DNA from: Marsupella aquatica
Taxonomy: Eukaryota > Plantae > Marchantiophyta
Direction: 5' to 3'
Length of the DNA stretch: 64,000 nucleotides
Assembly (NCBI GenBank): GCA_973895155.1
Contig: OZ316893.1
Location: forward strand, 25,347,520-25,411,519
Position numbers and translations under genes: made by a program. Positions 28,475 to 54,630 of the stretch are shown in pieces; within the stretch, counting starts at the first letter, position 1; each line of letters starts with the position of its first letter. The notes under the pieces were generated by a model, which saw nothing but the letters and a program-made list of their open reading frames with translations, searched no databases and was not told the origin of the DNA.

Positions 28475-28804
28475 TGTGACACGGGTAACGTGTCACTTAA
28501 CCAAACGCAGGTCCTAGATTAGGACTTATACGGTCATTAGGACCATAACCGTAACGTAGAATAGCACGAGTAGCCGTCTTTGCCATTATGAATAGATTAG
28601 GAGTAGGTTAGTTGACTGAATGATTACGAATTAAAGAAGGGGATTATTACGATCGACCGAGGTACGGTGGCGGCGGCGGAGTAAAAATCCGTTAGGAGAT
28701 CACGCTTGGACCGAGACGCCAACTTCAGCTCATTATCAATGACCAAAACGGCCTTGCCCTCTCACGCTCGAGCTCACCATGGCACCTCCATAAGAGCCGA
28801 GTCG

Positions 28805-29671: not shown

Positions 29672-30168
29672 CACAACTACATTTTTGCATTTCAGGACCA
29701 GGTTTAACCTAACCCAAGACGACGTTCCTTCCATTTACGATGGACTATACGTCGTTAAGCTCCGGACTGTTGTCGGATGTCGTTCGGAGTTCCGACGGGA
29801 TCGGATAATGTCAACTTGTGTGACGTTAACTTTACGTCCTTTAAGACACAGTAAGTTACCTCGTATATCACGTTGTACCTTACATTACGTCTTACTAGAC
29901 GTGGTAACTTACCTGTTCCCGGAAGACGTAAATGAGAACGATGTATAGGATGACATTCTTAAGTTTAGGCATTTGGAAGGACGTATCTTCAGATGCATCG
30001 TCATAGAATACCATATGTGCATCGGGAAAAATGACGTTAATTCCACATATCAGTGGAGGACAGATTGAACTATAGGCGGGAGGCTCACTATAGCCTACAT
30101 TCCCGAGTGAAGACATCAAAGGTCCTTAGTGTAGAGAAGTTGAACCGTGGGAGGCAAAGTGTTCAGCT

Positions 30169-31379: not shown

Positions 31380-32253
31380 TCAATCCTCCTCGTCTGTGAT
31401 AGCTGATGGCATGAAACATTTCCTGCGGCGTGGAAAGATGGGAATCACAATGGACCATCCTCCCATGTTGTGCATCGGAACCATAATGCATTGATCCACT
31501 TGGCTAGGAAAAACTATAGTGTCACTAAACTCAGTCCCGCTTGGTGCAACACGGGTCGTGTCCACACGATAAAATCCACACTCATCCTTCACCATGGTAG
31601 CTCTTGCTGGAGGTGACATGATGGACTTGTGCCACCTCACCTCTAACACCGTGGTGGTAAACGAGCCAAAATTAACATCCAAAATATCCAGGACAATGCC
31701 ACAATAAGGAACCTCAACATCACCTACATCGGTCACCATATATACTCCAGAGTTACAAGTACTCTTCTTCATATGGTCCGTCCTCCAAGTCCGAAAGTGG
31801 TTCCCTGACTCATACATGTGAGTATGACTCATAGCCCACATCGAAGGCCCCCTAATGATGGTCTGTACATCAATGGGAATGAGTGTAGGGCCATGCACTG
31901 CAAGGAGCCCCTCCATGCGCTCCAAGGCCCATATGCGAAATGATGCATGAACACAGTCTCGTACTGCCCTATCCGCTGCTGCTCCACCCATGCCCTGCAA
32001 GTACTGGGTCACATATACATTAGATCCCAATATGTGCCAACCACCTTGAATGTACATTTCAAATCTAAGTAGGACTCAACATGAAGGATTACGTCCCTAC
32101 CTATACAACTCTCTCCAATCTGACATCTCGGTGCGGTTCTCCAACACATAATTGTGGATCTGTCGGCGAAAAATGTCATCATGTAATGATCGCTTCTTTG
32201 ACGCGCCCATCACTCGCAACCCACCATTATCATCATCTTGTGCCTCTTCCCAA
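31380..32253 (-). pseudogene. TnpD transposase of the outer element, 3' part (DUF4216-like)
   Basis: GNHFRT, NSGV, PYCGIVLDIL, VRWH, DECGFYRVD and FPSQVDQC parallel the C-terminus of the inner TnpD (GRHFRI, DECGFTRL, FPSHLEQC). Continues the frame across the CAA TSD. Confidence 0.88.
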
Positions 32254-33008
32254 CACTACTACATATTGGCCCCTTTTGTGAAGCTTTTTTTTGACGCCGG
32301 GATGGTCTTGCGATGTCATCGACTTCAGATATTTTGTGATCAAACACGCATCACAATAAACCATGCTCACAGGTTCGCAACATGGTGTTGCGAAGCTAAA
32401 TACCTCGCAATTTGTTTGAGATCGGATTGAATTCGCAACTCTTTCAGATACTATTCGTCTCGCAAAGTATTTGTGGATCCGCGACCATCGCGACTGTATT
32501 TGGATCTCTTTTGTTTCATAATTTAGCGATAATAATGTACTCAAATATATATTGTGAACCTATTAGCTTCGCACAATATTGTGAAGCATAAATAGTCGCA
32601 AGTTACCGAATCCAGTTGATTCGCAAAGTTGAGAACACATTGACATCACAATTACCGATGGTGTGTTATTCACAAAGTGTTCAGAAGTTGCTTCTTGACA
32701 AGCTTGAAAATGTTTTGCAAAGAGAGTTGTTTGAAAATTTTGTAGAATGGAAATGTTTGAGAGAGTTTCTTTACAAGATGGAGAATGCATGTGTTTAGGT
32801 TACAGCTAGGGTTTTCAAAAAGGTGGCATGCATGAGGATAGCTTTGGAAATGGCTAAGGTTGCATATATAACAGTGAGATGAAATTTCAAAGTCCAATTA
32901 AGTGTTTGTAAAACAAAAGAAGAAAAGTAATATGTTAATATAAATAAAACCATGATAGTTAGTTTAGGGTCAAATTCTGGGCCCACAACAAGTTTTACTA
33001 CTAGTGCA

Positions 33009-36000
33009 TCAAACCTGGTCCTCATCCTCGCCTCCATTTGACACAATAATAACGTCAGGTTTTTCCGAGATAATGGAACGGGACCGTGGCACATACGGTA
33101 TAACAACTGACCACTCTAGGTCTGGTGGGTACGGAATATAGAAACACTGCTCAAGGTGACTTGGGAATGTAAATGGTTCAGATGTTTGCCAATGAGATGG
33201 TTGAAAGCTAGTTGCTGATGTCTTCAGTCGAGTAAACCCACACTCATCAAGAAATACCGTGCGATTATCACCAACCAGGTGAATTTTGAACCACTTACAC
33301 TTGAAGACATACTCTTCAAATTTGGAATCGGCATCATAGGATATGATCAAGATCTCCTCAATCTTCCCATAGTGAGGCACCACATCTCTGATCACATTAG
33401 TGTCATGACGGCTACTTTGTGAATCTTGCATGAACTGCCCTTGAACTCCACAATCAAAAGTTCTTCCCCTCTTCTCATCAAGGTCAGAAATCCTGAAATG
33501 CCTCCCTTGTGTCCACATTGCTGTTCTGGTTTGAACAAGTCTTAAAGGACCATGAACAATTGTTCGAACCTCAGGAGTCATATCTGGAAAATGTGATACA
33601 TTCTCACCTTGGGCCACCATAGCATCCAACTGAAGTACTTTCTCCTTCATATACTCAAGGAACTTTGGAAAGATCCTTGGGCGACGACTCTCCCTCTTTG
33701 CATCCTCATAAAACTCTCTCCAATCTTCCATCACATTGCTGTTACTCAACATGAAAGTACTAACCTGTGTCAACTCCACTGCGGTTAGTAAGCGTGTTTT
33801 TTTTGCACCTGTTAAACGGTCCTCCTCCACTTCCCTCTCTTCCATCCAAGTGCGTGGAAAACTAGGATCAATGGTAGCTAAGATGTTACTACAATAAAAC
33901 ATACTCTCAGCTGCCAAGTATCCAGTTGCCATGCTCCCCTCCACTCGTGCACGGTTCCGTACATAAGCCTTTAACACGGCCATATACCTTTCCAGCCAAT
34001 ACATCCACCTACAATGCACCGGACCGGCAATGGCAACCTCCCTCACAAGATGAACGAGAAGATGCACCTGACAATCAAAGAAGGAAGGAGGGAGGGCCTT
34101 CTCCAACTTGCATACCACCTCTGCTGCCAATACCTCCATCCGTGGTATCTCTTTTTCATATATTTCCTTTGAGCATATCCATCTCAACAAAGTGCCCAGT
34201 GACCAAAGGGCGTCTTGCACTTCTTCACTCCCCAAACCTATGATTGCCACAGGAAGTATATGTTGTAGTAAACAATGATAGTCATGTGTCTTGAGATACA
34301 TTGGCCATTTATGACTGTCCTCCATCCCAAAAGCCTTACGTAGATTGGCACCATAGCCTGTAGGAAACCGCATCTGCCCTATGCGTTGTCGAAACTCTCT
34401 TCTTTCACCAACACTCAAAACCCATGGAGCTGAAGGACGATGTTCCATCCCTGTGGATTCATCAACTGTTATCCATACATCTGGATGTCGTTCTAGATCC
34501 TGGCATGCCTCCCTAAAATTAATGTTCTTTTCCCCATAAAAGTGCTTGATCAAAGCCTTCCCAACATTTCCCTCTATATGCATGGGGTCTAACAAGTGAT
34601 GAATCTTCAACTCAGGCCAATAGGGCAAAGTGGCCAGTATACCCCACCTTGTCAATCCACTACCATCAAATCCCATGGCATCTTCAGGGTCTGCCACCCT
34701 ATCAGCTATGGACTTCCAATACGAAAATGTTGTGCGGTCAGGTATCTCACGCTCATCACCATTGATCATGTCAAAGTCTGAAAACAAAAGGGGGTCAGAC
34801 CTCATGTGATGCCCAAGTGGAAGAAACTTGGTATGACCAAGGTAGATTATCTTGTGCAGCCATTTTGAGTACTTGGCCATATCATGAAGGCTTGGACCAC
34901 AAGTGGAGCATGCCTTGTACCCTTGAGTTTGGAACCCAGAAACAAACCCAAACCCTGCTCACAAAATAACATTCTCAATTAGAGTCAAAGGAATTGAAAA
35001 GTTCATGTACATAGAATTAAAGAGGGACTTCCTTCCAAAAAAACTTGATCTCCAATACATGAAAAAAATACAAATCCATACCACTCACCTGGATAGTCAT
35101 GCATGGTCCACATAATGATTCCCTTCAATTGGAAGACACGTGGTAACCCTCCTGTAGTTGTCCGACCATCATATGCCCATACACCCCCCCATAATTTATG
35201 GAGTTCCCCAACCAAGAGCGCCAAGTAGATGTCCATGTTTTTTTACCTTAGATGGACCTGGGATAATCAATGATAGCAATAAGAATCCCTTTTTCATGGA
35301 CAACCATGGGGGAAGGTTGTAATTCATAACAACCACCGGCCAAACCGAAGTAGGGCGCCCTTTCCCTCCAAGGGAGTGTGGGCTTACCCCATCTGAGCCA
35401 ACCCCAACCTCACATGACGAGGGTCACGTGCAAATTCTGGCCATTGTGACTCCACATGCTTGTGAGCAGGGGAATCAACTGGCAACCGCATGACACCGGC
35501 CTCTGATCGATGTGTCTTATGCCATACCATCAATTCTGCCAAGTCAGAACATCGGTACATGTGCAACAATCAAGGAATAATAGGAAACCAACGAACAGCT
35601 TTTCTAGGCACCTTTGAGGTCAACATGTTGGTTTCATATCGAGGCTCTTGACAAATTGGACACTCAGTTGCGCTGGCATTGGTCTCATGATAGAGAATGC
35701 AGTCATTCACACAAGCATGAATGATATGGTATTCCATGCCAATGGATGATAGAACCCTCTTTGCCTCCTTCCAAGTTCTTGGCAACACATTTTCACTAGG
35801 TAACAAGAGATCATGGCAAATTGCAAACAAATCCGATAGTAGCGCATTGCTTGCCTTGTGTTTTGCCTGAAGATTCATCAATGCCAAGATGGCAGATAGT
35901 CTATTCAAACGAGCACCCCCATAAATAGGTGTTCTAGCATGTGCCTCAGCTTCTTCCCATTGTTTTTGTCCTTCAGGTGTACGTTGAGGCCTTGGATCAT

Positions 36001-36277
36001 GTGCAATATTTGGTGGAGGGTCTCCTTCATTGGGTGGGACACCTCCTTCACCACCAATGTCTACACCAAACCAATCTGTCATGAAGTAATCCATGGCTGA
36101 CTCTTGGTCTTGCATGACCTCATAATCTGTCCGAGGTGCCCCTTCATCTGGGCTGTCATTATCATTGTCACTTGATGAGGAATCTGCTGATGATGTTTCC
36201 CCGTCTTGTGGCAAGCCCATTTCTTGATATGTAGCTCTCAACCTCCTTGGCAACATATCTTGACTAGGCCGCACATT
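33009..36277 (-). pseudogene. TnpD/Tnp2 (Transposase_21 + DUF4218 + DUF4216-like) transposase of the inner CACTA
   Basis: Motifs HACVNDCILY..CPIC.EPRY, RWFPIIP, DSPAHKH..DPRHVRLGL, WTMHDYPG, LDPMHIEGNV, PPSFFDCQVHLLVHL..GPVHCRWMYWLER, FKCKWF. Nonsense TGA at 35570-35572, frameshifting near 35240-35390, intron ~35087-34956. Confidence 0.93.
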
Positions 36278-36427
36278 CTATAGAAAATACAATAAAGTAT
36301 TCACAATGAAATTAACGCCAAATATAGTAGTGCTCGAAACATATTATTAACAATATAAAAAGAACATGTCATTACAAAACATACGTTCACATACGATGAA
36401 CGTATAATACATGTCCCTAAAGTAATC

Positions 36428-37589
36428 CTAATCCCATTCATAATGTGTAAACAACTCCTCTCCAACCAGAATGGTCCTATTAGCTACAACTAGACAATGG
36501 TCATGATGATATCTCTGCCCATAAGGGGCTGGAGGGGGACCATCAACAAAAACCCATTCACAGTTTTTCCTACGCTTAGGCCGGGTCCCCACAGTACTGT
36601 TGATGAAACCGGCAATATTCCCACTACGGATGGGATCACCATCAATTATACGCTGGTCACAATACTTTCTGGTGCAACCATCAAAAGTATCCATGTCCAA
36701 TGCATAAGTCTTCCACTCAGGGTGTTGAACAAGGATCATGTTCCAATGTCTCCTCTTGTAAATGGGTCCACCATACGGGAACAACGTTGGTCCATCTGAA
36801 GAGCGCCCTGTTCCACCCATATCATCCACAATAATGTCCTGACAAGAGAAAATCCCATACCCATGCCTCTCCCCTAGGGTCAAACTCTTGACAACCCAAC
36901 GTCTTCCCCAAACTTCTATCTCATCACCATAGGTTATATCACATGGCAAACCAAGGCACTCCGGATTCCAATCCTTTATGATAGGAACACACTTCCCTGT
37001 GAAGGTACAAGGGCCCCATCTACCATCAACCCTACAAGTGTACTGATCCACTTCCCCTCTAGGCTGTCTTTCTGACTTTTTTTTCCCTCTTGTAACAATA
37101 CCGTCACCCTTAATTGTCCCAACACTACCTTGCCCTGCTGCCACTAAACGAAAAGCTTGTGAAAGTGCCGAGCCTATAGCATCTAGAACTCCTTGTGAGG
37201 GAACATAGGGTGTTGGTGTAGTGGGTGTAGGCCTACTGGATACCTATAGGAAGAAATGGAACCAAGTGAGTGTGATGAACCTCCCAAATTTTATTTTATG
37301 CTACCTAGCAAGATTTACAAAATAAAATGGAAATCACAGTAAGTTTACAACTCACCATACGGGATGAAGAAGCTCCCGGTGTAAGACCTCGATGTTGGCC
37401 ATATCGAGCAATGTGCTCCGCACATACATATGACTTTTGGACAACCATCCCCACACATTTTTTACAACCACAAAGTTGGCGTGGTGGACCACTAGGTCGA
37501 CGTACGGTTGGTTCAGGTTGAGGAGGAGGATGACTTTCTTCATCGGAAGAGGAATCTGATGTGGTGGAAGTTGTAGAGGATGAAGACAT
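36428..37589 (-). CDS. SET-domain protein with N-terminal CxCxxC..H (transposase-associated-like) exon, inner CACTA; apparently intact, ~349 aa
   Basis: Exon 37589-37356 (LCGCKKC...EHIARYG; donor ATG|gtgagt) joins in frame to exon 37243-36428 (acceptor cctatag|). SET motifs: HGYGIF, YGG, IDGDP..GNIAGFINS, ANRTILVGEELFTHYEW*. Confidence 0.85.
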
Positions 37590-38021
37590 CTGACAAGTAT
37601 AGCAATTGGAAGGCGATTAGTAAAAACTTCACCAAAACCATCATTGATAATCCCTACCTAAACATATTAAAAAGAATTGACAGAAAAATACCTTTATGAG
37701 ACCCGGGCTTAGCAATGCCTTGACAGATCTTGTGGCTCAAATTTCATGAACCAAATCTGGAAGGAGGGGAAAATCTGCCAATATACAATGAATTAAGCCA
37801 TGCCTTATGGTGAACCAGAAAAAAAGGATGATAGATTGTAACCCTCCATATTTACAGCAATGACTAGAAATGCATGAGAAAATGTTATACCTTTCAGATG
37901 CCCGGGCTCTTGCAAGGCATTATCATGCATTAGCCAAAACTTTAAAAAACATGGGGAAGTGCCCTACAACGCCAAAGAGTTTTCCTCTCCATGTTAATGA
38001 GATAGACAAATAAATATAAGT

Positions 38022-38850
38022 AACCCAAACCCTACCCTAAACCCAAACCATGAAATGAAACCCTTCATTAAAACCTAACCCAAATCCCTCAATCACCCTA
38101 AACCCTTACCCTTATCCTAACCAATACCCAAATCCCTCATTAAAAATTCAAACCTTTACCCTAAACCCAAACCCCTACCCTAAACCCAAACCATGAAATG
38201 AAACCCTTCATTAAAACCTAACCCAAATCCCTCAAGCACCCTAAACCCTTACCCTTATCCTAACCAATACCCAAATCCCTCATTAAAATTTCAAACCTTT
38301 ACCCTAAACCCAACCCAAATCCCCCAATTACATATAAAACTCTTACCCTATCTACACCTTACTTTACCTATATAGGCCAACCCCCACCCCTATAGTTATT
38401 CTAAACTTCACCCTAACCCCTAAATTGAGGCCCTTTTTTAAAACTTAGGCAAAAATTGTACCCCCTCAATTAGAACCAAATCCAACCCTATATCATGTTA
38501 CACCCCAACCCAAATACTTACATTAGAAACCCAACCCCTTTAAAAAAACCACAATTAAACCCCCCAACTAAAAACCAAACCCAATCCCTTTAAAAAACAA
38601 CCACAATTCAACCCCTCAACTAAAACCAAACCCAACCCCTGTAATTACTCACAACCTAATGCAAACCTCTACCTTGAACCCTAAGCCAAACCCATTAATT
38701 TAAACCCAACCCTTTTATTCCAACCTAACCCAAGTTTTAACCCCCTTAATTAAACCAAATACTCCTAGATTAAAACCAAATATAAACCTAACCTTTAATT
38801 AAACCCAAACCTTTGTTAACTTATATTCTAGTTATCCTTACAACCCAGAC
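38022..38850. repeat. Degenerate telomere-like (CCCTAAA/CCCAAA) tract including a 143-bp tandem duplication
   Basis: C/A-rich strand with many aaaccct/accctaa words. ccatgaaatgaaaccc occurs at 38048 and 38191 (period 143). Confidence 0.8.
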
Positions 38851-39310
38851 ATCCATTGACACCCCTTCCATGTTACCTTATGGGCACTTAACATACCTTA
38901 AATGTCGTTTGACAAACCTTAATAGCCGTTTGACACCCCAAAGTGTTTTCCAACCCTAAACCGATAAGACCTGCCTCGCAAATTATTTCACAAGTTAGAG
39001 AATATTTCTGCGAACCTACGACCTTCGCACTTGCTTCGCAAAAACAGAGGCCGAGAACAATTTTTTGGGTCTTCTGCGGGTTGCGATGGCTTTGCGAAGG
39101 GAATAGATTCGGAAGTGCCTCGCAAGTTGCGAGACTATTTGCGAGGGTGCGGGCTTCGCAGTTTCCCATGCATATGTCATCGCAAACCCGTTTTTGAACG
39201 GCGTAAACATCGGCGGGAGCTCGCATTCGGGCTCATTTCAGTTTTTGAGCGAGACGAGAAGGGCCGGGGCGCGCGCAACAGTACGAGGGAGACTGTGAGA
39301 GAGGGGAGCT

Positions 39311-41357
39311 ATGGCTACCGGTGAGGGGAGTGGAGGGCAAGGTGGTAGTGGTAGTGGTAGTGGCAATGGGGGAAATCCAGAGAAAGAGAAGAATGCTTGG
39401 GCAGACTTAGTGGCCCAACATCTCAGTGCTGCACAATTGGGAGAAGTGAATCTCAATTCTCCAGCAGGGCTTGCCTCTTTGAGTGCCATTCTTGGACAGG
39501 TTTTGCAAACTGGGATTGTAGCAGGACAAGCTACTAGAGAGGGGGAGGAGAGGGCCGCAGCTGAAGAGAAGGCTAGAGAGAAAAAAAGGAAGAGAGAGGA
39601 AAGAACTAAGTCGGGAGTTGCCTCTCCTCAAGCCCTAGAGAAGCAGAAGAGAAGAGAGGAGAGAGATTCAATTCGAAAACAGAGGGAGGAGCAACGTCAG
39701 AAAGAGGAAGCAAGAAAAAAACTTCCATTCATTGCCTTGGAGACAAGTGGGACTCCAACTGAGCTAGCATATGCAGGGGCTAAGAGCACAATCAAGCAGA
39801 TTATCACAAGCAATTTCTCACGAGGCATGCAGTGGGGGAAGATTGAGAAGGCAGAGCGAAAGAGGGTCATCAACCAAATCAAGGATGCATTTCGCAATGG
39901 GCCTGACATAGATGAGCAATGGTTGGCAGATAAGATTTCAAATTCTATGTCTCAAATGCGATACCATGACAGGATGAAGATTAGAGCCCACCTGAAAGAC
40001 TTGAGATCATACAGGAACTTGCGCAGACCCCTCCACTTCACCGAGGACATCTGGAATTCATTTTACAAGATTGAGGTGCAAATTAAGGCAGCTCACGAGT
40101 TGGAAGAGTGGAAGGGCAATCTAGATCGAGCCTTGAAAGCAAAGGAGGCCGGGAAGCTCCCCCCTGACCACGACCTGAAGCCACTTGAGCAGAAGGTAGC
40201 TGAGATGCAGAAGGTGGCCGACCAGGAGGGAAAGCCACCCAAGCGTTTCACAGATGCAGCCAAACGAGTGAAATCCACCCCCAATCCAGTCCACAAGTTG
40301 GGTCAAGGCGGGCTCCCCGGCCTCAAGTCACACTTTGTGAGTGCCTCTTGCTCCTCCCTAACCTCTCTATTCCTTTCAGAGTTGTGCAATGCAAGTGAAT
40401 GACATCCCCGAAGGTTCTTGTTGTTGTGCATGCTTGCTTGGTTACTAGTTTAGGGCAACTCTGACACTTAGAATTTCTGGCAAATTTTTAAAAACTCTCG
40501 GGAACACAGTTTGCGAAGGTGTTGCGATGCGTATTTGTTCGCAAACCCCTCACAAAGTCTATCATAGACTTTTTCCATTTCAATTTTCCGATGCCTTTGC
40601 GAACAAATGCGCATCGCAAACTCCATCGCAACGCCTTCGCAAAAAAAGGTGGTTTGCAAGTTGCTATGCTTATAGGTTCGCAAATTTGAATTTAAAATTT
40701 TTTTTGGGTCATGTTTAGTAGTTGAGGATTTAGGCGTCACTTGTGGCTATAGGGTATGCTTAAGGGCAAATTTAACCAATTTTAATTGGTTTTATGCATG
40801 GCAGTATCGGAGGTACAAAAGGAAGATATCAAAAAAGCATATTGAGGTGGCGATAGAGCATGGACGAAAGTACCTCTTTGCGATGGTAGATGCCGAGTTG
40901 GCTACTGTAAGTGTCTAAGTGTGAACCATATGATTAGCATGCGAACATTGTGAGTGACCCTTTATGTCTTGCGGAAACTAATGATATGTAATGGATGCAG
41001 GATTCGGATGAGCCTGAGGGGTCGGGTGCTGATGTGACCAGTAGTGATGACGATGAGGGGGCTACTCCTGGTACTAGTGGTGCTCGGGGGGGGAGTAGTC
41101 GTGAGGTAGGTTCTTCCCATCGTGGTAGTGGTGGTAGTCGTGTGTCATCAGCACACGTTGATGACCAGGGGGAGGAGGAGGACCCTGAGGATGAGGAGGA
41201 GGAGCAGGAGGGGCAGGAGGAGCCAGAGGAGCAGCAGGAGCAGGAGCAGGAGCACCGACGGCCATCACGCACCCGTCACCAAGAGGATCCCCGGAAGGAT
41301 AAGGGCAAGAAGCCAGCCAAGAAGCCAACCAAGAGGAGCCGCAAGAGCCCATTCTAG
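39311..41357 (+). CDS. Second (TnpA-like) gene of the inner CACTA, three predicted exons
   Basis: Exons 39311-40336 (..HKLGQGGLPGLKSHF|gtgagt), 40805-40906 and 41001-41357, with canonical GT/AG sites in phase 0. Helical W..-W..-RY core, HxLGxGG motif and acidic/basic tail are typical of the CACTA second ORF. The TnpA assignment rests on position and motif, not a database hit. Confidence 0.72.
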
Positions 41358-42145
41358 TTATTTTGTAGAGATACATGCATGAGAGTGACTTGTCATGCCG
41401 GAGCTTAGGGTAGGAAGAGGCAGCATAGGTTTAGAAGGGCGGACCTAGCATCAGATATTTCCCCCCTCTTGTCCATGTATAGGGTTCTTTGAAGCCCTAT
41501 CATTTTGTTCATGCTTTTCCATTTTATAAAACAACAATTTTGCCTTCCACATTGGGTTCCAAGGAAAACCCCTCGCAAATAATGTATTGAATCCTGTGTG
41601 ATCATAATTTTGCGAACCCTTTAAGAACTCATTCCCATCGCACAATATTAACCCCAAGGCGTCACACTTTTTGAGTCAATTAACTTCAGAACTTCAGATC
41701 CAAATATGTCGGGTTTTTGTGATACTTCTAGGATCGCACTTTCCTAATCGCAACCGTTCACAAACTTCTGAAATCACCGGTATCGCTCTTTGTCATACAA
41801 TCCCCATCAAAACAATTGAACCAGTATCAATCGCAAATATGATGCGATGGTAAATCCGTCTCAAATATTGACGCCCGCGCGGGACGTGTGCGTGTATGTT
41901 TGCGAACCTTATGCGACTTATAATGGATCGCAGAAGTATTGAATATTGCGAACCTCTCAGCTTCTCAGTTTGCCATGATGTTGCGATGCCGTTGCGATGG
42001 TCCGCGTGCGAAGTTATTAGGTTCGCAAAGTGCGAAGGGGGTGCGATGCGTGTATGTTCGCAATAGCCAGAATTATGAAAATCAGGGGCTTGTTAGTTGC
42101 GATGAGATTGTCTTCGCAAAACCGGCCGATAGTGTTGTAGTGCAA

Positions 42146-45120
42146 GCTGTGGGAGCTTGTGTGTCCAAACTCCCTATCACCCCGCTTGAGTAGAACAGGC
42201 ACTCCGACATAATATACCCTGTTGCCATACTTCCCTCTGGTCAAGCGGGTTGGTGCACGCAAGGCTTTAGCACTTTCATGAACCGCTCTACCCAATACAT
42301 CCACCGCGCATGCTCTGGACCAGCAATGGCTACCTCATCCACCAGATGACATAGCAAATGCAACTGCATGTCAAAAATACATGGGGGAAACACCTTCTCC
42401 ATATTGCACATAACACGGGCAGACCGTTCCCTCATCTCGGGAATCTCACTCTCCCTTATTTCCTTGGCGCATACCCACCTGTAAGGGGTACTCAAGATTT
42501 TGTCAAATTATTAGTATGATAAACATATGCAATGATCATATCATAAATATATGCCAACAAGACTATGCTAACCTGAAAATGGAGCACAACTCATATACTG
42601 TATGTCGGAGTAGGCGTCGCTCTCTAGAATCATCCTAACAACGCAAGACAGCAGGTAACACATGCTGAATCAACTTGTGATAATTGTGAGACTTCAAGCC
42701 GATTGGGGGTATGTGGTCTTCCCTTGTAGTGCACCCACGGAAGCCGGCTCCGTAATGGCTAGGGAATTTCATTTCACATATCATCCCGTTCATCTCCTTC
42801 AAAATCTGTTTTGGCAAAACCCAAGGAGCAGGTGGCTTCTCCCCATCTCGAGTTATCCAACAACTCTTGACCACTCCAACCTGCTTTGCATCCTCTCGGA
42901 CCCCACGAGTATCATTCATCCCATAAATGTGCTTCACCAGGTTCTTGGCAACATTTACTTCAATATGCATGGGGTCCAACAACCATCGGATGTGGAGCCT
43001 CTACAAGATGAAGAACCAGGTTGTGCTAGTGAGAAACTCATAAATAGAATACTACAAGTCACTAACTTAAAATAGGTCCAATCTGATTTTACTTACCCTC
43101 CAATAAGGCAAGTCCCACAAAGCTGAGCGACGATTGACACCACAGTGCTTAGGTTGAAGTAACTTTGCCTCCACTTTCTCCGCCATTTGAATTTGACCCT
43201 CAGCTGAAGGCCCATTGGGACATGGCCTAAACTCAGTCTCAGCCCAATGTGTGGTGCTATGTCGCAATATATCGTCCATTGGCAAACGAACCCTACTGCC
43301 TTCATGTGTGGTTTTGTGCAGACGTTTGGAGTATCTCCCATGCAACTCAGGACCACATGAAGGGCAAGCTGAATAACCGGCCACTTTCAAGCCAGATATT
43401 GTGCCCATACCTGTCAATGACATTTAAAACATTCAGGCCAAAATCCATTGTCACATGCAATAGAACCATGCACAATGTATATCTCAATTATTTCTATGAC
43501 TGAGAATTACCTGGACCATCCGTGGTGCAATGGGTGATCATTGCTCTCATATTAAATGTCCTCCCATTATCCGGTGTACGAGTCACATCTGTGGTCACTG
43601 CCCCAAACTCCCATAGGTTCTGCAACTCTTCATAAGCTGGAGCCAAACAAATGTCTGGATTTTTACAGGCCTGAGGACCCGGAATGATAGCAAGGAGGAG
43701 AACATGACCCTTCTTCATCACCAACCATGGAGGGATATTTTGATTGAGCAAAAGAACTGGCCATATGGACTTAGGCTTCCGTCGTTGCTTGTATGGGTTT
43801 ACCCCATCTATTGCTAACCCAAATCGAACGTTCCTTGGCTCCCTAGAAAAATGCGGCCAAGTGCTGTCGATGTGCTTCCATGCTGGACTATCGTGGTGAT
43901 ACCGCATAATCCCTGGTGGAGATTTGTTCTCAGCATGCCATGTTTGAAGTGCTGATAAATGTTTCCGTCGATAAAGATGCTGTAGTCGGGGTGTGATCGG
44001 GAAATACCTGAAGACTTGCCATAAACAGTGTTACAAGCATCACTTCGACGTTAAATCAAAGTTAATGTCGTCTCACAAGACATAAATATACCTGTACAAT
44101 GTAACATACGACGTAAAGTTTCTCAGCGATGTTAGTAACGTCGGCTACTTCAGTTTACGTCTTAATTAACGACGTAAATATATGTGTACCATGTAGTAGA
44201 CGACGTAAAAACTACAGGTGATTTGGAGACGTAAGTTACATCTTTAGAAAGGACGTACGTGTGCGTACATCAGAAATGACGAGGAAAATGGGCAAAACTA
44301 CGTTCTAACAAACGTAACACCGCCAGGAGGAGGAGGACATCACCTTCTCTGGGAACTTTTTGCCGATGGTATCCGGTCGGTACCGTGGAAGCTTACATTG
44401 TGCCTCTGGGCACTCTGTATGCTCAGAGTATGTCCCTCTGTACAGGATGCAACCACTTGGACACATGTGGATAGTCTCTAAAGCCAATCCAATTGAGGTT
44501 AACAACTTCTTAGCTTCCCTCACACACCGAGGGAGAGTGTTTGGTTGGGGCAAGAGTTTTTTGTGGAATAGTGCATCTGTATGGACGTTTGAAGTGTTGA
44601 AAACTCCCTGCAAATTCAACATCAACAAAGTGGCACCCAACCTACATTTGTGAAACCAGGGATTTGTATGCAATTTGTTTGAGGTATGACATTGGGTGTG
44701 GTAAGTAATGGTCGAAACATTGGGTGTGGTAAGTAATGGTCGACACATGATACTATTCAATCATGAGACTTACCGTGATGATGGAGAATCCAGGAAGAGT
44801 GGAGTTCTGGCTTCCATTTCCAACTGGTCCCAATCTTCCTGGTCTACTTCCATGGTAGGCCTCTCGCCCCGAGGTGCATGTGGTCCAAAGTGAACGTCCA
44901 CAAGGTGGGCAAAAGCTTCCTCTTCAAGAATGGGTGCATCCCCCTCATCTCCACTGTCCTCATCAAAGTCTCCATCATATGCATCATGGTACTCCTCATG
45001 GTCACTATCCCCCTCAACATCTTCCTCATCAGAAAAGTGCAGAGTGGCCCGTAGGTGAAAGTCACGCGCTGACATCGTCATCATGGATGGGTGAGGTGTA
45101 GGGGTAATGTATGCACCATC
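42146..45120 (-). pseudogene. TnpD/Tnp2 transposase of the outer element, 5' part (multi-exon, disrupted)
   Basis: Motifs HMCPSGCILY..ECP...PRY, DSPAWKHID..EPRNVRFGLAIDGVNPY, LDPMHIEVNV, FPPCIFDMQLHLLCHL..WMYWVERFM. Interrupted by introns, frameshifts and the inner CACTA. Confidence 0.92.
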
Positions 45121-45224
45121 CTACAATTGTTTAATACAATATTATAATCAAACAAATAATAAAATATGATTTAATGCAATATGCAACAATGGGTCCATAT
45201 ATTCTGAATGTATCATGTCCATCC

Positions 45225-46686
45225 TCAATGCCAATCATAATCTACAAAAATCTCTTCCCCTGCTCGAATGGTGCGGCTAGCATGGGTCAAGATGTAATGA
45301 GTACAAGCCTGTGGCAAACGAGGGTGGGTCTGGTCATGGTACTCGTGCCACTCAGCGTTTGGCCTAAAACCTAAATGCCGACAACCCACAGTGCTATTGA
45401 TGTAACCTGCCAAGTTTCCAGTGCGGGGTGGATAACCATCCATCTGAGCATACCTAGGCTCTAGCTTGACAGACATGCCATATCGACCAAAGGTCGGACA
45501 TTGTCGAGACAAGATGCGCCATCGCTGTGCAGAATACTTTGGCCCATAGAATGGAAAGAGCTGAGGCAAGTCCTCGGGCTGACAACCATCAGGGACCACA
45601 ATATCTACAAGTGCAAATAATCCTAATCCTACGTTGGGGCCCAATGTGGAGGGAAGGAGGACCCAAGGGCGGCCCCAGACTATGATAGGTTCCCTGATTG
45701 GAAGGTCCAATGGGAGCCCAAATTGGGTAGGAAATGAGTCCTTTATGATGTCCAAGGCTCTCCCACGTAACTCTCTCGGTTCCTGGGCACTAGATGCATC
45801 AAGAAAAGGGCAATGGGTTGGCCTCATCCTAGGTGGACGAGACTCCAACGACCGTGGTCTAGTACTGACCACTACTCCCCTCTCAATAGGGTGCACCCGT
45901 GCCACCCTCACCCTATCAAATACACGGTCTATTGCCCGTAAGGTGGCATCTAGTGCCGATGGGGGGACCAGTGCAGAGAGCGCTCGACGTGCAACCTCTC
46001 TCATGCGGTCCTTAGGGGGAGACCGTACAATAAGAATCTGTTCCACATGTATGCAACAAAATTTCAGAAAGCGAGAAACATGAACATTGCTCAAGAAGCC
46101 AACCTACCTCAAAATGGTTGTGCAAAAGGATAAAACTTACCTCTGGTGTCGGTGGAACATAACGACCGTGGATCCCTAAGTGGCTAACGATGGTAGTGCT
46201 CTCGTGAGATACAACGCCCTTGCATTGTCTACAAGGGCAAGGCATCTTGCGGACTGGTCCAATACCATGAAGAGCAACCATGGCCGCTCCAAACCCCTCC
46301 TCCACTGGCAAAGGTGAGCTGTATGCCTGGGGCTCATGTGATCGCCGGCGACGGTGTGACCGATGATGGTGGCTCCTCTCTCTCCTTCCGTCCTCATGAC
46401 TGGGACGGTGATGACGTCAAGATCCACTAGTCGTCCTCCGAGGCAATGACTCATGACCCCTGCTCTCTGGTGAATAATCCCTCCTCTGCAGCAAATAATC
46501 CCTCCTATCCAGTGAGTCATCCCTCCACCTATCCGGCGTATAGTCCCTCCTCCTAACCAGCGAATGATCCCTCCTCCTATCCGGCAAATAGTCTCTACCC
46601 CTATCACGATGCCGGTATCTGGAGCCAAGACTCGTATCCCCATCATCTCTCTCATCAGACAGAGAGTCTGATGCATAGATCACCAT
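45225..46686 (-). pseudogene. SET-domain protein with RD-rich and CPCRQC..H N-terminal exon, outer element; one in-frame TGA at 46417-46419
   Basis: Exon 46686-46141 (donor GAG|gtaagt) joins in frame to exon 46037-45225 (acceptor aacag|). SET motifs: VGLGLFA, FYGP, MDGYP..GNLAGYINS, PNAEW, ASRTIRAGEEIFVDYDW*. Clearly homologous to the inner SET ORF. Confidence 0.82.
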
Positions 46687-48299
46687 GCCCTGCAACAAAT
46701 TGAACCGTCTTTGATTAATGCGTAGGGAAGGATCCAAACCTTAAACCTACCACACAAACCCTAACCCTAAAGTATAATGCCATACAGTACGTTACAAGGC
46801 CTTAACGTCATTTTTCGAAGCAACCCTAACATTTAACGTCGTCAATGGACCCGCAAACAATGACCTTTAAAACACAAAGGACGATGTTTATCTAGATTAA
46901 CGTCGTTAAGTACGATGTATTATGTACGTCATTTCACCTAACGACGTATGTTACGATGTAAAATCAGGAAAACGGCGGATCCGCGAGGTTAGGCATCCCC
47001 GGTCATTTCCTTTGGGAAACATCGGGGGAGTATCAAGGGAGTGTTTGAATGTGACTCACATTCGACATTCCCCACCTCTAGTCCTTACCTCTCCTTGCCT
47101 CCTCTACCTCACATAATTGCTCACAGAATAGTCTGCCATGTCGTATCCAGGCTATCTTCCCTGTAGTATGAACTTTGATGCACTGAAGCTGGGTCTGGAG
47201 GATCCAGAGGAGTTGGAGAAGGTGCATCGAGCCCTACGTTCGACACATTCACTAGTTCAAGCATTCAACCACAGTTGACAATTCATGGGAGGACAAGGAA
47301 CAAAGGCGTCCAGGTTCATAGAATACCTGGAGAGTATTGAGGCCAACACTCCTGCCGACGAGGAGGGGGCCGAGATTGAGGAGGGGGCCGCGATTGAAGT
47401 GACTGAATCCGCGCCCGAGCTTGATGGGGCATCGATTGATATGCTGCCTTCGTTCCCGAGTCTACCAAACGATGGTTGGGATGATCCTGGCTTCACTGGG
47501 ATTCAACTAGATTCTTAGGCAGCAGCTCGAACTCCTATCAAGAGTCAAGTGACAATCCCACATGAGAGATACAGGCCAGAAGATGATAGGAGGGACCATC
47601 GGCAACATAGGAGGAGGAGGAGGCGATCTCGTTCTTCGTCAAATAGCAGCACTGAAAGGAGAAGGCGAAAGGGGAAAGGATCCAATGACCACAATGCAGG
47701 CACTTCTAGCAAGAGACATAGGGGAGATCGACATACAGGAGCAGAGAGGAGAGAAGACCACTCACGATCGTTTCCTCCAGAGCGGCGACGTCCTTCTCAG
47801 CAAGCTGCAGCTGCTTCTGCCAAGAGGGAGCACCTTCCCACCATCACCCTTGCCGCTTTTGATGCTAGGCCGGACGTCATGGATGAGAAAGCACTCACGA
47901 ACAGAGTGCAGACGTGCGTAGCTAAACACTGTCCCGGTTGGACTACTTGGAAGGAGCTTGTGCATAACCAGAAGAAGTTCCAATTGCTCCTGAATGACGT
48001 GCATGCTGGATTCAGAAATGGGCAAGAGATTGACTACCGCCACATTAGGAAGAAGATCGTGAATCACCTAGCTGATCAACGTTTCAGGTGGAGAGCCAAG
48101 GTCCGAAAATTGAGATGCTTGAGGACAGGGGATTACAAGAAACCTGATGGGATGAGTGAAGAGGACTTCAAATTGGTTGTCTCCAAATTGGAAGCAGCCC
48201 TAGACACCCCAGTTGGCAAGCGAGTGCATATGGGAGACAAGGCCACTGCTGTTCAAAAAGCGAGTGGCAAGAAGGTGACTAATTTTGGGGGGCAGGGAG

Positions 48300-51200
48300 T
48301 GTGATGCCTAGACAGGAATCACTCGGCCAGTTAAGTGGGTAAAGCAGGAAGGCACCCTAGGAACACCTTAGTATAGGGACAAAACAAGGAAAATAAAAAC
48401 AATTAGGGGCAACCATGGAACCCGGGCCGAGGCTGGAGGTAAGGACGCTGAGGGTGAAAACTCGATTAGGGTTAGGGCGCGTTAAGCGTCGGCGGCTAGG
48501 AAGGATCAACGGGAAGAAGGACCGGCAGAGGAGAGGGGTAAGGAGCGCTTGCAGGAGATGGTGGCTCATTTGCGAGCACGAACTAGGCAGACGACTACGG
48601 GAGGCCAACTACTGTCAGCTGCTTAGGCAAGCACTCGGGGAGAGAGTAGATACCGACGATCGACCTAAGGAGGGTATGAGCAACGTCAATCAAGCGGCAC
48701 ATTTCTGGGGATGCCTGTTCGAACGGGCAACTGAGTACATCAAGACTTACGAGGACGAGGAATCAGAAAGGGCAGCTCGAGAATGGCAGGAGCTCGCTCG
48801 ATTGTGGGAGCTGCAGAAGACGGCTTTCTTAGGAGGCGAACTCATCAAGGACGAGTTCCTATGGACGCCTACTTCCAATCAACTCGACAATCTTCTGTTT
48901 TGCAAAGACAGCGTCGTCGGCATCCGAGAGGCCATCAAGAACTGCAACGACATACACTGGGAATTAAAGGGTAGCACGGAAAGGTGGACCCAGGCAACGG
49001 TGCTAGGAGAAACCTCCACGACAGCAGAGATGAAGAGGAAGGGAGCCGTCAACGATGAAGCCATCCCGGCAAAAAGAACGAGGTCGGCGGCACCAAAGAA
49101 GCCAGCCGAGCAGCAGAGCAGGAGGCAGGGAGAAGCCGAAGAGGAGGAGGTCGATCCCATCAAGGCCATTCCAACCAGGGATGACACCTGGAAGGGCTGG
49201 GCAGCAACCCTACCGGTGGAGGTGCAACTACATTTTGCACGGGAGGAGGATGCATGCTTTACGGCCATGCAGACCAAGAAGTACCAAGGCTTCATGGCCG
49301 GATCCGGCTTAGAGGCCTTTGTAAGATTACCATGGCTGAAGCCGGAGGTACCGGAGTCTGACCTATTAGAATTCGTGGGGTCATGGGAACCCGAGACCAA
49401 TTGCACGAGGATATATGGGAAGGATTTCTATCTTACTCCCAAGGTAATTGCCGAAGTGTTTGGCTTGCCGATAGGCAATAAGACCAAAGTTGATACCAGG
49501 AAGACCTTGCCTGACAAGGAGTTCCGGTCATTCCCCGGGCCATCAACGAAGAATGGCTTCTTCCGGAACACCTGCACCAACCCGCACATAGGAGAGATGA
49601 TCAACTTCTTGCGGGTGACCATGCATTGTAACTTGCCGAGGGCAGAGATCGGCAAGGCACAGGTCTATCTGGCAGAGAGGCCAGACCCAAGCCGGGACTA
49701 CAACGGGTACCTCCTCAACCAATTGAAGAAGATCTTAAAGGAGGAGCAGCAGGTAATCGGCATGGGGAGCGTGTCGCGGCTTGGCTATCACATGCCGCTG
49801 TTGTGCCGGTATGCCAGAGGTCAGATTTTTGCCCCAGTACTTCCCCTGCAGGTAAGGGCACCCAAGAAAGCTCCAACGCCGAGGCCGTTGGCTGAGAAGC
49901 CTCAACCACCTGTTAGCCCTACGATCAAGCAGGTGTTTAGACCCAGGAAGGAGGACTTGCCGATGCAGCAACCAGGCATGCAGAGTCTGCTGAAACTACT
50001 GGAGAAAGAAAAGAGATCGGCATCGGCAACAACAACGGCAACAGCAACAATGCAGGACACTACTACAGAGGTAGGCCTACACCGGCTCACAAGAGAAAAC
50101 CCCTTTGCTGGAGACAAGGAGAGAATCAGGCCGGAATCCAAGCCAGGTGTTCGAATGTATGTGGGAATCTCAAGCTCCGAATCTGAGGCAGAATTGCCTG
50201 AAGCTCCTACCGACGAAGAGGAGAGGGAGAAGTCGGACGTCCAAGAAGTAGAGGAGGCAGTGGAGGACTGCAGCCTTGATAATTCCGGCTATGGGTCGGA
50301 CCATCACATTCCAGGAGTAAGGACCTGTGGCCGGTTTGTCCCCACACTTCCAAGGGTAGTGCGAGGGGACCCCAACCAGCAGAGTAGCCCTGAGTCTCCC
50401 CCACCAGATGTTGCTCCCCCGAGCTTTGACGGCATAAAATAGACGGTGCAGGAATTTCAGGAGTGAATCAGGGAGGAAGAGGAGGCAGCCCTGGCTAGGG
50501 AAAAGGATTTACCAGGAGGAGATTGGCCGGAGGACATCAGGCGGCTAGCCGAAAAAGGAAGCAAACCTCTAGCCACGATTGAAGAGATCCGCAAGACGGC
50601 TTGGGAGCAGAGGCCGCGATGGGCGATGCCGATCACTTCTACTTACTCCACCTACGCTAAGAATAGAGCCATGGAGTATGGTGAGATGTGTGGGGAACTT
50701 GCACTCGGCATCTTTGGAGAGGAGTTGGAGGTAGGACCCTTTTTCCATAGGGAGCAGTTGGAGAAGCACCAATTAGAAGAAGCGGTGGCTTTAGAGAGAA
50801 GCAAGAAGGACGAGGTCATTCGGCGGCTTAGGAGGATGGAAGCCGAGATTGAAGATCTAAAGGCGGCCAAGAAAGCCCAAGATGAACTGCGGATTAAACG
50901 GCATGAGCTGAACATCATGCAGGGGCAGTTGGACACCGCGCAGGCTGATAATCAGAATATCAAGGATAAACTGACTCAGACGCAGGGAGAGTTGGCCGAC
51001 ACGATCAAAGAGAGGGAGAAGTGGAAGCGAGAGCTGAAGAATACAGAGGAGGCCCACATAACAGCCAACAGCCGGGCCATGGCGGAGACCCAAAGAAAGG
51101 AATGGGCGTTGAAGGGGGAGCTCGAGAAAATCCACGGAGCCCTTGAGCAGAAGGAGGCCGAGTTAGGGAATATCAAGGGATTATGGCGCTGCAGCAGGAG

Positions 51201-52969
51201 CTTGCATCCCTGACGGCCAGCTTCAAGGCCGACCTAAGGGAGAAGGACAAGATGCTCGAACAGATTTACGCCAAGATGAACCAGATGGAGTCTGTCATCA
51301 TTGCAGAGCTCGACAAGGAGCTAAGAGCAACCCGGGAGGAGAGGACTACCTTGAAACAAGAACGGGAGGAAGCCCAGAAGGAACTAGAGGAGGCGTGCAA
51401 GGACCTGGATGAGACCCAGGAGGAGTTGGAGGAAATCACGAGGAAGATGGAGAACCTCCAGCGGCGGGCCGACAACCAAACAGAGCGGCTGAAGAAACAA
51501 GCCGCAGTATTCAAGTGCTTGTCTTCATCAGGCCCAACTCCAATTGGGGCAACCAAGTTACCAGGAGTGGTACTGGCTGAAGAAAAAGCCGCGCCACCTG
51601 CACCAGTGCCGGAAGTAAGTGGGAAGGGGAAGGAACCAGCTGCCGAACCAGAAAAGAAGAAGAAGCCGAAACCTTCAGGGTCAAGGAGTAATCCGACTCC
51701 ACAAGCCGTGGTGGCCAAGGAGGTAGAACCAGCACCATCCTCCGGCATGAATACGGCAATAGATCCCGCTATCATCACAGATGGGGGTGGTGCGGCCCAA
51801 GCCGAACTACTCAGTAATGAGGCCGGTATCCCAGATCCGCCTCTTGAGCAGGCCGGGGAGACCGTAGCCGAGGCTGAGGCCGTAACCGATTCCCGAGCCG
51901 ATGCCGACGCCGATGCCGACGCCGATGGTGGACCCAGTCAGGCCGATGGAGAGTTGACTCAGTCAAGGGCAGGTAATCTGTCAGAGAATGAACCTACGGC
52001 AGTGGCTGAGGAGGAAGCATTGGGGGCGTCCATTAAGGATCCTCCACCGGTGTCATGATGGTGCAAGGGCGCCATTCCTTTTAGGGAGGGCGGACGTGGA
52101 GGGAGGAGGCGTGAGTGGGCAGGGCGGGCGCTGATCTCCAAGTTTAGGATTAGGATCAGGACCAGGAGCGACCCTGACACTTAGCTTAGTGGGATTGCGG
52201 TTCCACTGGTAGGAGCAACACTTGTGCTCCTGCCTTGCTGTACATAGGTAGATTCGGGCAAGTAGATTATTGTTAGGTAGATTAGGCTTACGATGCAAAG
52301 AATGGCGGATCCACTACCAGGATAAGTACCTGGGCAGCGGGGAGCTCAGGGCCTCTTCTTTAGCAAGTTTTTAGTTTGCACCAGCCGGGCTGGGATCAAG
52401 TAGTATGAGAAGCTCTCGGTTAGTCATACAGTGACCCTTGTGTATATTCATGTTTCCTCATGCCTAAGAGCTGAATAGAGTTGGCCTCACGGCTTAGTTC
52501 GTAGAGCTTGTGTATGAGATGTCCTGTTTGTATGGCAAGTGCATGGTATGACTCAGTCAGAATGAGTCATTTTGCTATTTGTGTGTCGCATTAACTTGTG
52601 TGAAGAGTGCCCACATCAACCAGAAGGAAGGAAAGTAAGCAGGGGAGTGAGAGTTGGATGTGTCGAGCTGAGAGAGGTCTTAGCGGCTTAACCAAGCCTA
52701 TTGGGGATCATTCCGGCGGCGGAATCCAAACATACCTAACAAGACGGAGGGGAAGACAGGGGAAGGCCTAGATTAGGCCGGCTACGTATCTCATGACCCG
52801 ATGAAGGATCTGTCCAGTATATATGTGTAAAATATTAATAGTAGTAGTAGAAGGTTAACAGCGTCCCATGCCGCTAAGCCGCGGAAACGGCCTCGCCAAG
52901 CGCGAAACCTGCGGGAATCGGCTTGAGCTGGGGGTTTCTTGGGTTTAGGGAGCCATGGGACGCACCACA
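48300..52969. mobile_element. Solo-LTR-like element B (4.67 kb, TG...CA ends, 5-bp TSD) inserted in the outer TnpA-like gene
   Basis: Ends TGTGATGC ... GCACCACA (7/8 inverted match). TSD GGGAG (48295-48299, 52970-52974). Removal restores NFGGQGGWGGFLATY followed by a gtaagt donor. No RT or integrase inside. Confidence 0.85.
48415..52058 (+). pseudogene. Long ORF of element B (~1200 codons originally): plant-TE accessory-ORF-like domain, Pro/acidic linker and coiled coil
   Basis: ORFs 48415-50442 and 50626-51213 are in one frame across two stops, followed by a frameshift into 51183-52058. Core GLEAFVRLPW..LLEFVGSW..IYGKDFYLTPKVIAEVFGLP. Heptad-rich E/K/L C-terminus. Confidence 0.75.
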
Positions 52970-54630
52970 GGGAGGATGGGGAGGATTTCTTGCAACCTAT
53001 GTAAGTGCAGTGACTCACTCTATACTCATTGAAGTCTGCATTCTGTGGTTGTGTGCTGCTGCGGTGAAATCCTGTGCTTTACGTCGTTTTTTAGTATTAA
53101 CGTCGTCTTGGCCGCACATTACCTTCCCTCTTACGATGTTTTCTTAGACGTACCTCACCTCTAACTACGTTAGCACTATATTAACGTCGTCCTGTCAACC
53201 TTAATACTATGGAGTCCCCCTGAACGTCTTAATGGACGACGTATGTATTAGTAATGTCGTATGATGATAGGTAAGTAACATCGCCCTGAACGACGTAACT
53301 TCCATTTGCTGCAGAAGCGGAAGTATGGCCAAGATGTCGAGCCAAGTGAGCATGAGCGGCTATACTCTAAGCGATATGGCCCGGCAGCCCTATGGGCAAA
53401 GCTTGACTCTGTTCCGGAAGACCACCCGGTAAGTGTGCTAGCTTGTTCAGTACCATTCCATAGACCTAGACTGAAACTATATCTTATGCAAACCTAGACT
53501 GAAATTGTATCTTGTGCACAGGTGGTTTAGTAGCACGACCCATTGAGGAGGATGAGGAGCCCAACACTGTAGCCCTGGAGGAGGGTACCCAAGAGGAGGA
53601 CCCAGTACCTTGCGGTCAGCAGGGCTCCACTTCTCGTGACCTTTTCCCTGCACTGGAGACTCATAGGGCCAGAGGACAAGGAAGGGAGAGACAGAGGGAG
53701 GAGGGAGATAGAGATAGAGAGAGGAGAAGGAGAAGTGGTGAGAGGCGGTCCACTAGGGTAACACGTAGCACCAGGCAGATAGTGCCAAAACCTAGAGGCA
53801 AGGCTCCACCCTCGGCTGCACCGGAACCAGAAGGCAGTAGCAGTGCCTCAGAGCAGGATGCCCAGTAGTATCAGTTGCGTTGGCGACGAGGCAGAGGATT
53901 GGGACGTGATAGGCCCCATTCTCAACGGCATTAGGTTGTAGGTATTTCAGTAGTAGGAGGTCCTCCATGCATTATGTACATATTTTTTGCCATTTTGATT
54001 CAGGCCACCCATTTGTGGTGGCACCTCATTCCGGGTTACAATATGTAAAAACACATGGTTATATTGTGTGTGAGCTGAACCCTAACAAGGACCCCACCCA
54101 GACAGTGCAATGTGTAATAGGATGTATGTACTCCCGTATACGTCCTCCTTTATACGACCTTTAACCACCACAGTACATCGTTGAGCCCTACATAAGCCAA
54201 CATACGTCGCACAACAAGAGCACGATACATCGTCCCCTACTATGTCAACTTACCCAAACGTCTCAAAAGAGGTCATAATATACCGGCCACGGACGACGCT
54301 AAAATAATACGATGTTTAGTGCATTGCACATTACAACGTACTAGACGTGGTTAATGTTTCATTACATAGCCTGACACGACGTTTATGGGTAAACTTACAC
54401 ACGAGCATTGGCCATATTTTACGTAGCCTAACACGTTGTAAAATCATATACCTCCTATTGTACGACGTTAAGAACAGTGTTCTGGACGTGATAAAGAGCG
54501 TCTCCCCAAACGTGGTAATTAACGTCGCTCTATTAACGTCGTGAATGAGGTCTTTCCTCCTCTGGCCATATACGTCGTGATTAACGTCTTCTAAAAGTCC
54601 GTTAATCAGACGTAAAATGTAGTTGTGTAC

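Follow-up and report, generated by a model that had tools for sequence, protein, structure and literature searches.

A SET-domain exon integral to a bryophyte lineage of CACTA transposons, likely spliced as an alternative to the transposase

In a 64,000-nucleotide window of the genome of the liverwort Marsupella aquatica (contig OZ316893.1, positions 25,347,520 to 25,411,519 of the forward strand; "the window" below is this whole stretch, and coordinates are counted from its first letter), two CACTA-type DNA transposons, one inserted into the other, each contain an intact exon encoding a SET domain, the catalytic fold of lysine methyltransferases. On the evidence set out below, this exon is almost certainly an integral module of a bryophyte CACTA lineage. 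It is likely to be an alternative terminal exon of the transposase gene, judging from the arrangement of splice sites and stops, and not a free-standing cargo gene.

On the minus strand, both elements present the same order: exon 1, an intron, the SET exon with its stop, a second intron and the transposase exons. In the inner element, exon 1 (37356-37589) has 78 codons, a Ser-rich start, a Transpos_assoc-like CxCxxC...H...G motif and a phase-0 GT donor; the SET exon (36428-37243) encodes 271 amino acids (aa) between a phase-0 acceptor and a terminal stop; and the transposase exons (33009-36277), which comprise a Transposase_21 part, DUF4218 and DUF4216, begin at a phase-0 acceptor at 36277. 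In the outer element, exon 1 (46141-46686) has 182 codons with Arg/Asp-rich repeats, a Transpos_assoc-like motif and a phase-0 donor; the SET exon (45225-46037, 270 aa, within an open reading frame (ORF) spanning 45225-46103) again has a phase-0 acceptor; and the transposase is broken into a 5' part at 42143-45120 (Transposase_21 130 bits, phase-0 acceptor at 45120) and a 3' part at 31380-32253, on the far side of the inner insertion. A preliminary description of this DNA had taken 36428-37589 and 45225-46686 for the elements themselves; these spans are the two SET genes, from exon 1 to stop. Its account of the two SET ORFs was accurate: both exist on the minus strand, are homologous and occupy the same position in each element. 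They are 33% identical over 256 aa (E 8e-34), share the GxGxF, GNxAGxINST and GEExFxxYxW motifs it had listed, stop three residues past the last Tyr with no post-SET cysteines, and exceed the Pfam SET cut-off of 22.4 bits in the HMMER search it had proposed (24.5 and 24.2 bits). Both window copies have kept an intact SET exon, whereas both transposases are broken. The inner transposase carries one stop and frameshifts in its 5' half, with DUF4218 at 117 bits and the Transposase_21 and DUF4216 parts below the Pfam cut-off, and the outer exon 1 has an in-frame stop at codon 90.

The pairing of SET and transposase extends beyond the window. A metagenome scan confirmed 33 loci out of 167 pattern matches, all of the inner type; most are near-copies within a single family similar to named Sphagnum proteins, to which one diverged locus, L006, is added. 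Exon 1 lies upstream of SET in all 18 loci with at least 300 bp of room and the transposase downstream in 18 of the 21 loci with room, the adjacency that the preliminary description had proposed to check. ORF2, a second gene found in both window elements and oriented opposite to the SET/transposase gene, is upstream in 11 of 13 loci with at least 1700 bp of room, and the CACTA terminus of the family is visible in five loci. The three loci lacking a downstream transposase have a truncated SET exon, and two of them look like one and the same locus. The outer type is represented by contigs of diverged copies: in several sequencing runs these connect SET with exon 1 as well as with the transposase exon, and two contig joints indicate deletion derivatives without SET. 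One metagenomic locus, L017, has 128-bp perfect inverted ends (1-128 and 5316-5443) around a SET and transposase fragment; this is probably either a feature of the assembly or a foldback derivative. A comparison of SET and transposase divergence was confounded by the frameshifts of the inner transposase and was left unused, except that the inner element and locus L014 are closest to each other in both parts.

Since a phase-0 donor faces two phase-0 acceptors in both elements, exon 1 is likely to be spliced either to SET or to the transposase, and we regard such alternative splicing, as read from the DNA, as highly probable. The exon 1-SET intron is bounded by GT..AG in 19 of 19 printed metagenomic loci, with the second acceptor intact in 18 of them by eye, and the stop after SET is retained in all 21 loci where its motif was matched. 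Two Riccia gene models (P0111 and P0123) link SET-family sequence with Transposase_21, and four further models hold transposase pieces; the inner exon 1 is 59–78% identical to the N-termini of Sphagnum and Calypogeia SET models, and a Cys/His motif stands ahead of SET in 11 of 161 proteins. Among the joints listed for contigs of five runs of unrecorded kind, none falls at a predicted splice position, which is uninformative on expression. A different architecture, with SET as its own gene starting inside the intron or fused onward to the transposase in the manner of SETMAR, would agree with several Sphagnum and metagenome models that start at a Met within the SET exon (P0005-P0008) and with Riccia models that pass from inside SET into the transposase exon (P0075, P0100, P0121 and P0134). 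The fused Riccia models, however, are automatic predictions that omit the catalytic Tyr, the inner window SET exon lacks a Met ahead of residue 143, and the transposase, which has its own phase-0 acceptor, requires an exon upstream. Given also the retained post-SET stop, which in both window elements keeps SET and transposase out of a single ORF, we consider this architecture improbable.

Word searches returned 40 and 30 relatives of the SET proteins, and phmmer over 1.84 billion representatives returned 83 at E ≤0.001; the organism names seen are five Sphagnum species, Calypogeia fissa and Riccia sorocarpa (11 of the 30 clusters looked up bore a name). None of 40 pattern matches in viral contigs was confirmed, and a search for proteins of 882-2515 aa came back empty, a result of little evidential weight. 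A tree without an outgroup, built from 63 of the 65 aligned SET cores (two short rows dropped), puts the inner protein and the outer protein into different supported groups, with the Riccia rows in two more. Solved SET domains are only 10–25% identical to the family, which makes a recent capture from a host SET gene unlikely as far as sequences can tell. With a protein of the liverwort Calypogeia the inner SET shares 66% identity and with Sphagnum proteins about 60% (comparison proteins P0001 and P0003), against 33% with the outer SET of the same genome; old paralogous families could account for this pattern, as could horizontal transfer between bryophytes. Six distant, mostly short members on long branches (P0117, P0130, P0131, P0107, P0112 and P0115) may point to the origin of the SET family.

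Codon comparisons indicate that the SET exon is under purifying selection, like the transposase. The ratio of nonsynonymous to synonymous divergence (dN/dS, NG86) of the SET core is 0.13, 0.13 and 0.16 between the window and three loci, with 95% bootstrap upper bounds of 0.21–0.24, and 0.26–0.27 between L006 and two loci (upper bound 0.41); for the transposase it is 0.10. The values between families are thus not near 1, the outcome that the preliminary description would have taken against a functional module. CACTA elements often capture gene pieces, and the exon might be a neutral passenger taken from a host gene; the median dN/dS of 0.87 for SET among near-identical copies could be cited in favour, although it also fits the decay expected of young copies after insertion. 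The low ratios between families, the distance to the best solved SET domains and the same exon position in families about 33% identical largely refute this explanation already, and we give it very little credence. The identical position in the two window families, in the metagenomic loci and in Riccia and Sphagnum gene models, dN/dS well below 1 and a phmmer list without a well-matched canonical host SET together support a conserved module over a one-off capture, as the preliminary description had proposed.

Structure prediction, also proposed there, gave a confident SET fold. An AlphaFold model of inner residues 62-271, built on an alignment of 65 sequences, has a mean confidence (predicted local distance difference test, pLDDT) of 91.8; an earlier model of the whole ORF from 18 sequences (pLDDT 41) was discarded. 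Foldseek matched SET domains with a best E of 1.8e-7 (VIA Z 12.0, root-mean-square deviation 2.5, 124 aligned), with Set1, EZH2, SETD8, SET7/9, NSD2 and LegAS4 tied and the top eight rows lying within one Z unit. The catalytic Tyr268 is present in 56 of 59 alignment rows, Asn215 in 59 of 65, Tyr180 in 61 of 65, and Gly128 and Gly130 of motif I in 60 and 62 of 64; position 157 is Phe in 24 of 65. Two positions ahead of the catalytic Tyr, 57 of 59 rows have a non-aromatic residue, a state that permits multiple methylation in other SET enzymes. A profile search of the PDB with a shallow alignment gave nothing significant; the best sequence-profile match is LegAS4 (E 7e-5), which has INFS in place of the NHS motif. 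The available part of a recent report describes LegAS4 as an active H3K14 methyltransferase and lists six active-site residues, including Tyr135, Tyr159, Asn181 and Tyr220, with Tyr231 in a cSET helix (10.64898/2026.05.29.728679). By our own mapping the first four correspond to Tyr/Phe157, Tyr180, Asn215 and Tyr268. From sequence and model together, we predict that the SET product is probably an active protein-lysine methyltransferase, which would bind S-adenosylmethionine (SAM) and methylate a lysine.

The elements that carry these genes are nested. The outer, CACTA-type element (29672-54627) has CACAA termini, perfect 14-nt terminal inverted repeats (TIRs) at 29672-29685 and 54614-54627 and the target-site duplication (TSD) TAC; among 55 perfect 14-nt inverted pairs in the window, this is the only one with equal 3-bp flanks. 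Within its transposase gene lies the inner element (32254-42142), with CACTA termini, TIRs at 32254-32271 and 42124-42142 that agree at 16 of 19 positions with one gap (manual count), and the TSD CAA. An ungapped automatic TIR scan missed the true ends of both. A tblastn match to the outer transposase ends at 42151 and picks up again at 32216, and the inner site is bridged by contigs in three of four public sequencing runs. Although CACAA departs from a strict CACTA terminus, both pairs of ends fit the 5'-CAC..GTG-3' definition of the CACTA/EnSpm superfamily given in the consulted part of PMC12730594, and both elements have the 3-bp TSD, the Tnp2-type transposase (Transposase_21, DUF4218 and DUF4216 by Pfam) and the clustered subterminal motifs of that superfamily. 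That the two elements differ in their TIRs and subterminal motifs, as first described, is evident from these ends and from the motif counts: TTGCGA has 38 occurrences inside the inner element and 12 in the remaining 54 kb, while GACGT has 63 in the 10.4 kb proper to the outer element and five in the inner. Of 25 TCGCAAA matches in the window, for which 5.3 were expected, 20 lie inside the inner element, clustered between 38950 and 42142 in its promoter region, the ORF2 intron and its right end, with two more near 32460-32630. CpG enrichment is 1.3–2.5 in the motif clusters against 0.3–0.5 in exons, a partly circular contrast because the motifs contain CpG.

ORF2 lies on the plus strand in both elements. 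The inner copy (39311-41357) likely has three exons, the first at 39311-40339; the outer copy (47137-53868, ends approximate) is split by a 4.67-kb TG...CA insertion at 48300-52969 with a 5-bp TSD. The two are 25% identical over 102 aa and gave no informative match in Pfam, the PDB or the Atlas, the PDB matches being to low-complexity sequence only. We treat ORF2 as a candidate TnpA-like factor that could bind the motifs. The insertion itself has no internal terminal repeats and holds ORFs of 681, 248 and 303 aa of coiled-coil character with no Pfam match above cut-off; it could be a large solo long terminal repeat (LTR) or a non-autonomous element. Between the divergent inner genes, 38020-38830 consists of AC-rich repeats like degenerate plant telomere units and includes a 143-nt duplication.

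The outer element in turn sits inside another repeat, at about 28100-57950, whose ends were not found; it has tandem units of 55 bp at 28135-28480 and related ones at 57270-57930, and its ORFs (29097-29612 and 55107-56249) have no Pfam match above cut-off. On the minus strand at 23303-24540, an ORF of 346 aa and an overlapping one of 224 aa, likewise without a Pfam match above cut-off, resemble by eye the end of a reverse-transcriptase-type element. Long inverted-repeat pairs at 21122-23172 (82 nt, 89%) and 22520-24895 (arms of 30-43 nt) may be further DNA transposon remnants. No Pfam match was found among the 43 ORFs scanned of the 60 listed for window positions 1-21000.

The scheme we favour is that the SET product is a lysine methyltransferase made by alternative splicing and acting on chromatin at the element's own copies; taken as a whole it falls a little short of an even chance. 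One promoter would give two products, exon 1 joined to SET and exon 1 joined to the transposase, which would therefore share the N-terminal Cys/His module. The target, the least certain step, would be a histone tail at or near the element; given an active enzyme, a chromatin target at its own copies has an even to slightly favourable chance. The enzyme would be brought there by the shared Cys/His module or by ORF2 bound to the clustered motifs, a route that the motif clusters and ORF2 suggest, and the mark would maintain the element in a state open to transcription and to transposition, adding a histone layer to a DNA demethylation of the TnpA type. The most specific version, in which the enzyme is a histone methyltransferase and the splice twin of the transposase, is guided by the shared Cys/His module and writes a mark that overrides host silencing, is possible but doubtful.

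Several observations weigh against this scheme. None of the 65 rows has the His of the NHS motif (63 have Ser) or the Arg that usually precedes it (Gly or Ala in all 65). The preliminary description had noted NST in place of NHS as a reason for doubt; the substitution is confirmed across the family, and the doubt is eased because LegAS4, which is active, lacks the same His. The protein ends so soon after its catalytic Tyr that a post-SET or cSET lid, including any equivalent of LegAS4 Tyr231, has no counterpart, and we regard this, on sequence, as the main structural doubt. The structure does not separate enzymes of H3K4, H3K27, H4K20, H3K36 and non-histone substrates, so that the mark might be activating or repressive. 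The Transpos_assoc domain normally begins Tnp2 transposases, and its match to exon 1 (PF13963, E 0.0086 inner and 0.00035 outer) is below cut-off in both elements; ORF2 has no match that would identify it as TnpA-like. Synonymous divergence (dS) between the window and the loci is 1.3–1.6, near saturation, which leaves the dN/dS ratios rough, and the metagenomic loci are not independent (median dS 0.05): mostly near-copies of one family with the diverged L006 beside them, they count as about two lineages.

Two other readings of the product deserve weight. An active methyltransferase might have a non-histone substrate, such as its own transposase, ORF2 or a host silencing protein, and so tune transposition. 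Many SET proteins have such substrates, the structure favours no histone-enzyme class, and a shared exon 1 would couple the dose and location of the enzyme to those of the transposase; the best structural and sequence matches, however, are all histone methyltransferases, though the PDB is biased that way, and SET cargo is found time and again in transposon superfamilies that are unrelated, a pattern suggestive of a host target common to them. We hold this reading to be unlikely, while taking it seriously. The SET product might instead be catalytically dead or weak and act by binding histone tails or a host silencing complex, in the role of a reader, decoy or scaffold; inactive SET and PR domains do exist, such as those of SUVH9 and MLL5. 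The missing His, Arg and lid and the Phe frequently found at position 157 would accord with this, but the catalytic Tyr, the SAM-binding Asn and the GxG motif are kept across a family of about 25–35% identity, and LegAS4 works without the His; we judge it rather unlikely. Action of a lysine methyltransferase on the element's own chromatin thus remains the reading we prefer.

If the most specific version of the scheme is right, these elements would be the first transposons of land plants found to write histone marks themselves, by means of a lid-less SET family without a close host relative. The plant transposon anti-silencing factors described so far, VANC and TnpA, are DNA binders that borrow host enzymes, and for the SET cargo of oomycetes and red algae the available parts of the sources offer only a sequence-based proposal. 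Mosses and liverworts include transformable models and the predicted catalytic core is a soluble-looking domain of 210 residues, so that histone-mark writing by a transposon, and the identity of the marks, become directly testable. Some bryophyte genes that bear the annotation "SET domain-containing protein" are exons of transposons, and counts of host SET genes would be inflated by them.

Among known systems, SETMAR/Metnase is a host gene in which a mariner transposase was taken up as a fusion beside a SET exon. As here, a SET exon adjoins a transposase exon within one gene; the bryophyte SET differs in lying inside mobile, multi-copy elements and in its conserved stop. Legionella LegAS4/RomA (PDB 5czy, 8swi) shares the lack of the NHS His and the four mapped active-site positions, but, in the part of its description available, it has a cSET helix and ankyrin repeats. 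Since it is only 22–25% identical and is structurally tied with SETD8, EZH2, Set1 and others, neither descent nor a shared substrate follows. In En/Spm, one gene yields the transposase and an accessory regulator (TnpA, TnpD) by alternative splicing, according to the portion of PMC13547354 consulted, and in Arabidopsis TnpA-Spm1 brings about DNA demethylation at the element ends via host demethylases, leaving H3K9me in place, and binds a motif with the core TCGCAAA, the same as in the inner element (10.64898/2026.08.24.746577, available in part). The proposed alternative splicing and the clustered cognate motifs are thus common to both systems; TnpA, as these sources portray it, is a DNA-binding protein, whereas the alternative product in bryophytes is a predicted enzyme of another fold, accompanied by a separate, divergent ORF2.

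A close precedent is the red-algal Plavaka transposon, also of the EnSpm superfamily, for which the accessible portion of the report describes a long-kept SET accessory gene, PAG2, proposed as a chromatin modulator (10.1101/2025.02.11.637652). There PAG2 is a separate gene of a three-gene cassette in which an N6-adenine methylase (PF01555) is fused to SET; the bryophyte SET has no methylase domain (PF01555 had no match in the window ORFs or 59 relatives), lies inside the transposase gene and accompanies a plant Transposase_21-type transposase by Pfam. SET genes are also borne by HarbingerS and Phytophthora MuDR elements (Kojima and Jurka, Repbase Reports 2014, as cited in PMC12730594) and by a Helitron-Helentron intermediate whose SET is reported as 50% similar to Clr4 (PMC4067079), whereas the bryophyte family has no close host SET. 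In the parts of these sources available, those elements belong to other superfamilies and to oomycete hosts, and a shared-exon design is not mentioned; the window transposases are of the Tnp2 type and not of the Harbinger type. Searches of the full-text literature, with Repbase, subscription journals and supplements outside their reach, listed no report of a land-plant CACTA with a SET gene or of a shared-exon design. The novelty claimed in the preliminary description, that no plant CACTA lineage with an integral SET gene was known, stands for land plants within those searches and is weakened by the red-algal EnSpm-superfamily and oomycete cases. What sets the present elements apart from these is their bryophyte host group, the likely alternative-exon position of SET and a SET family without a lid.

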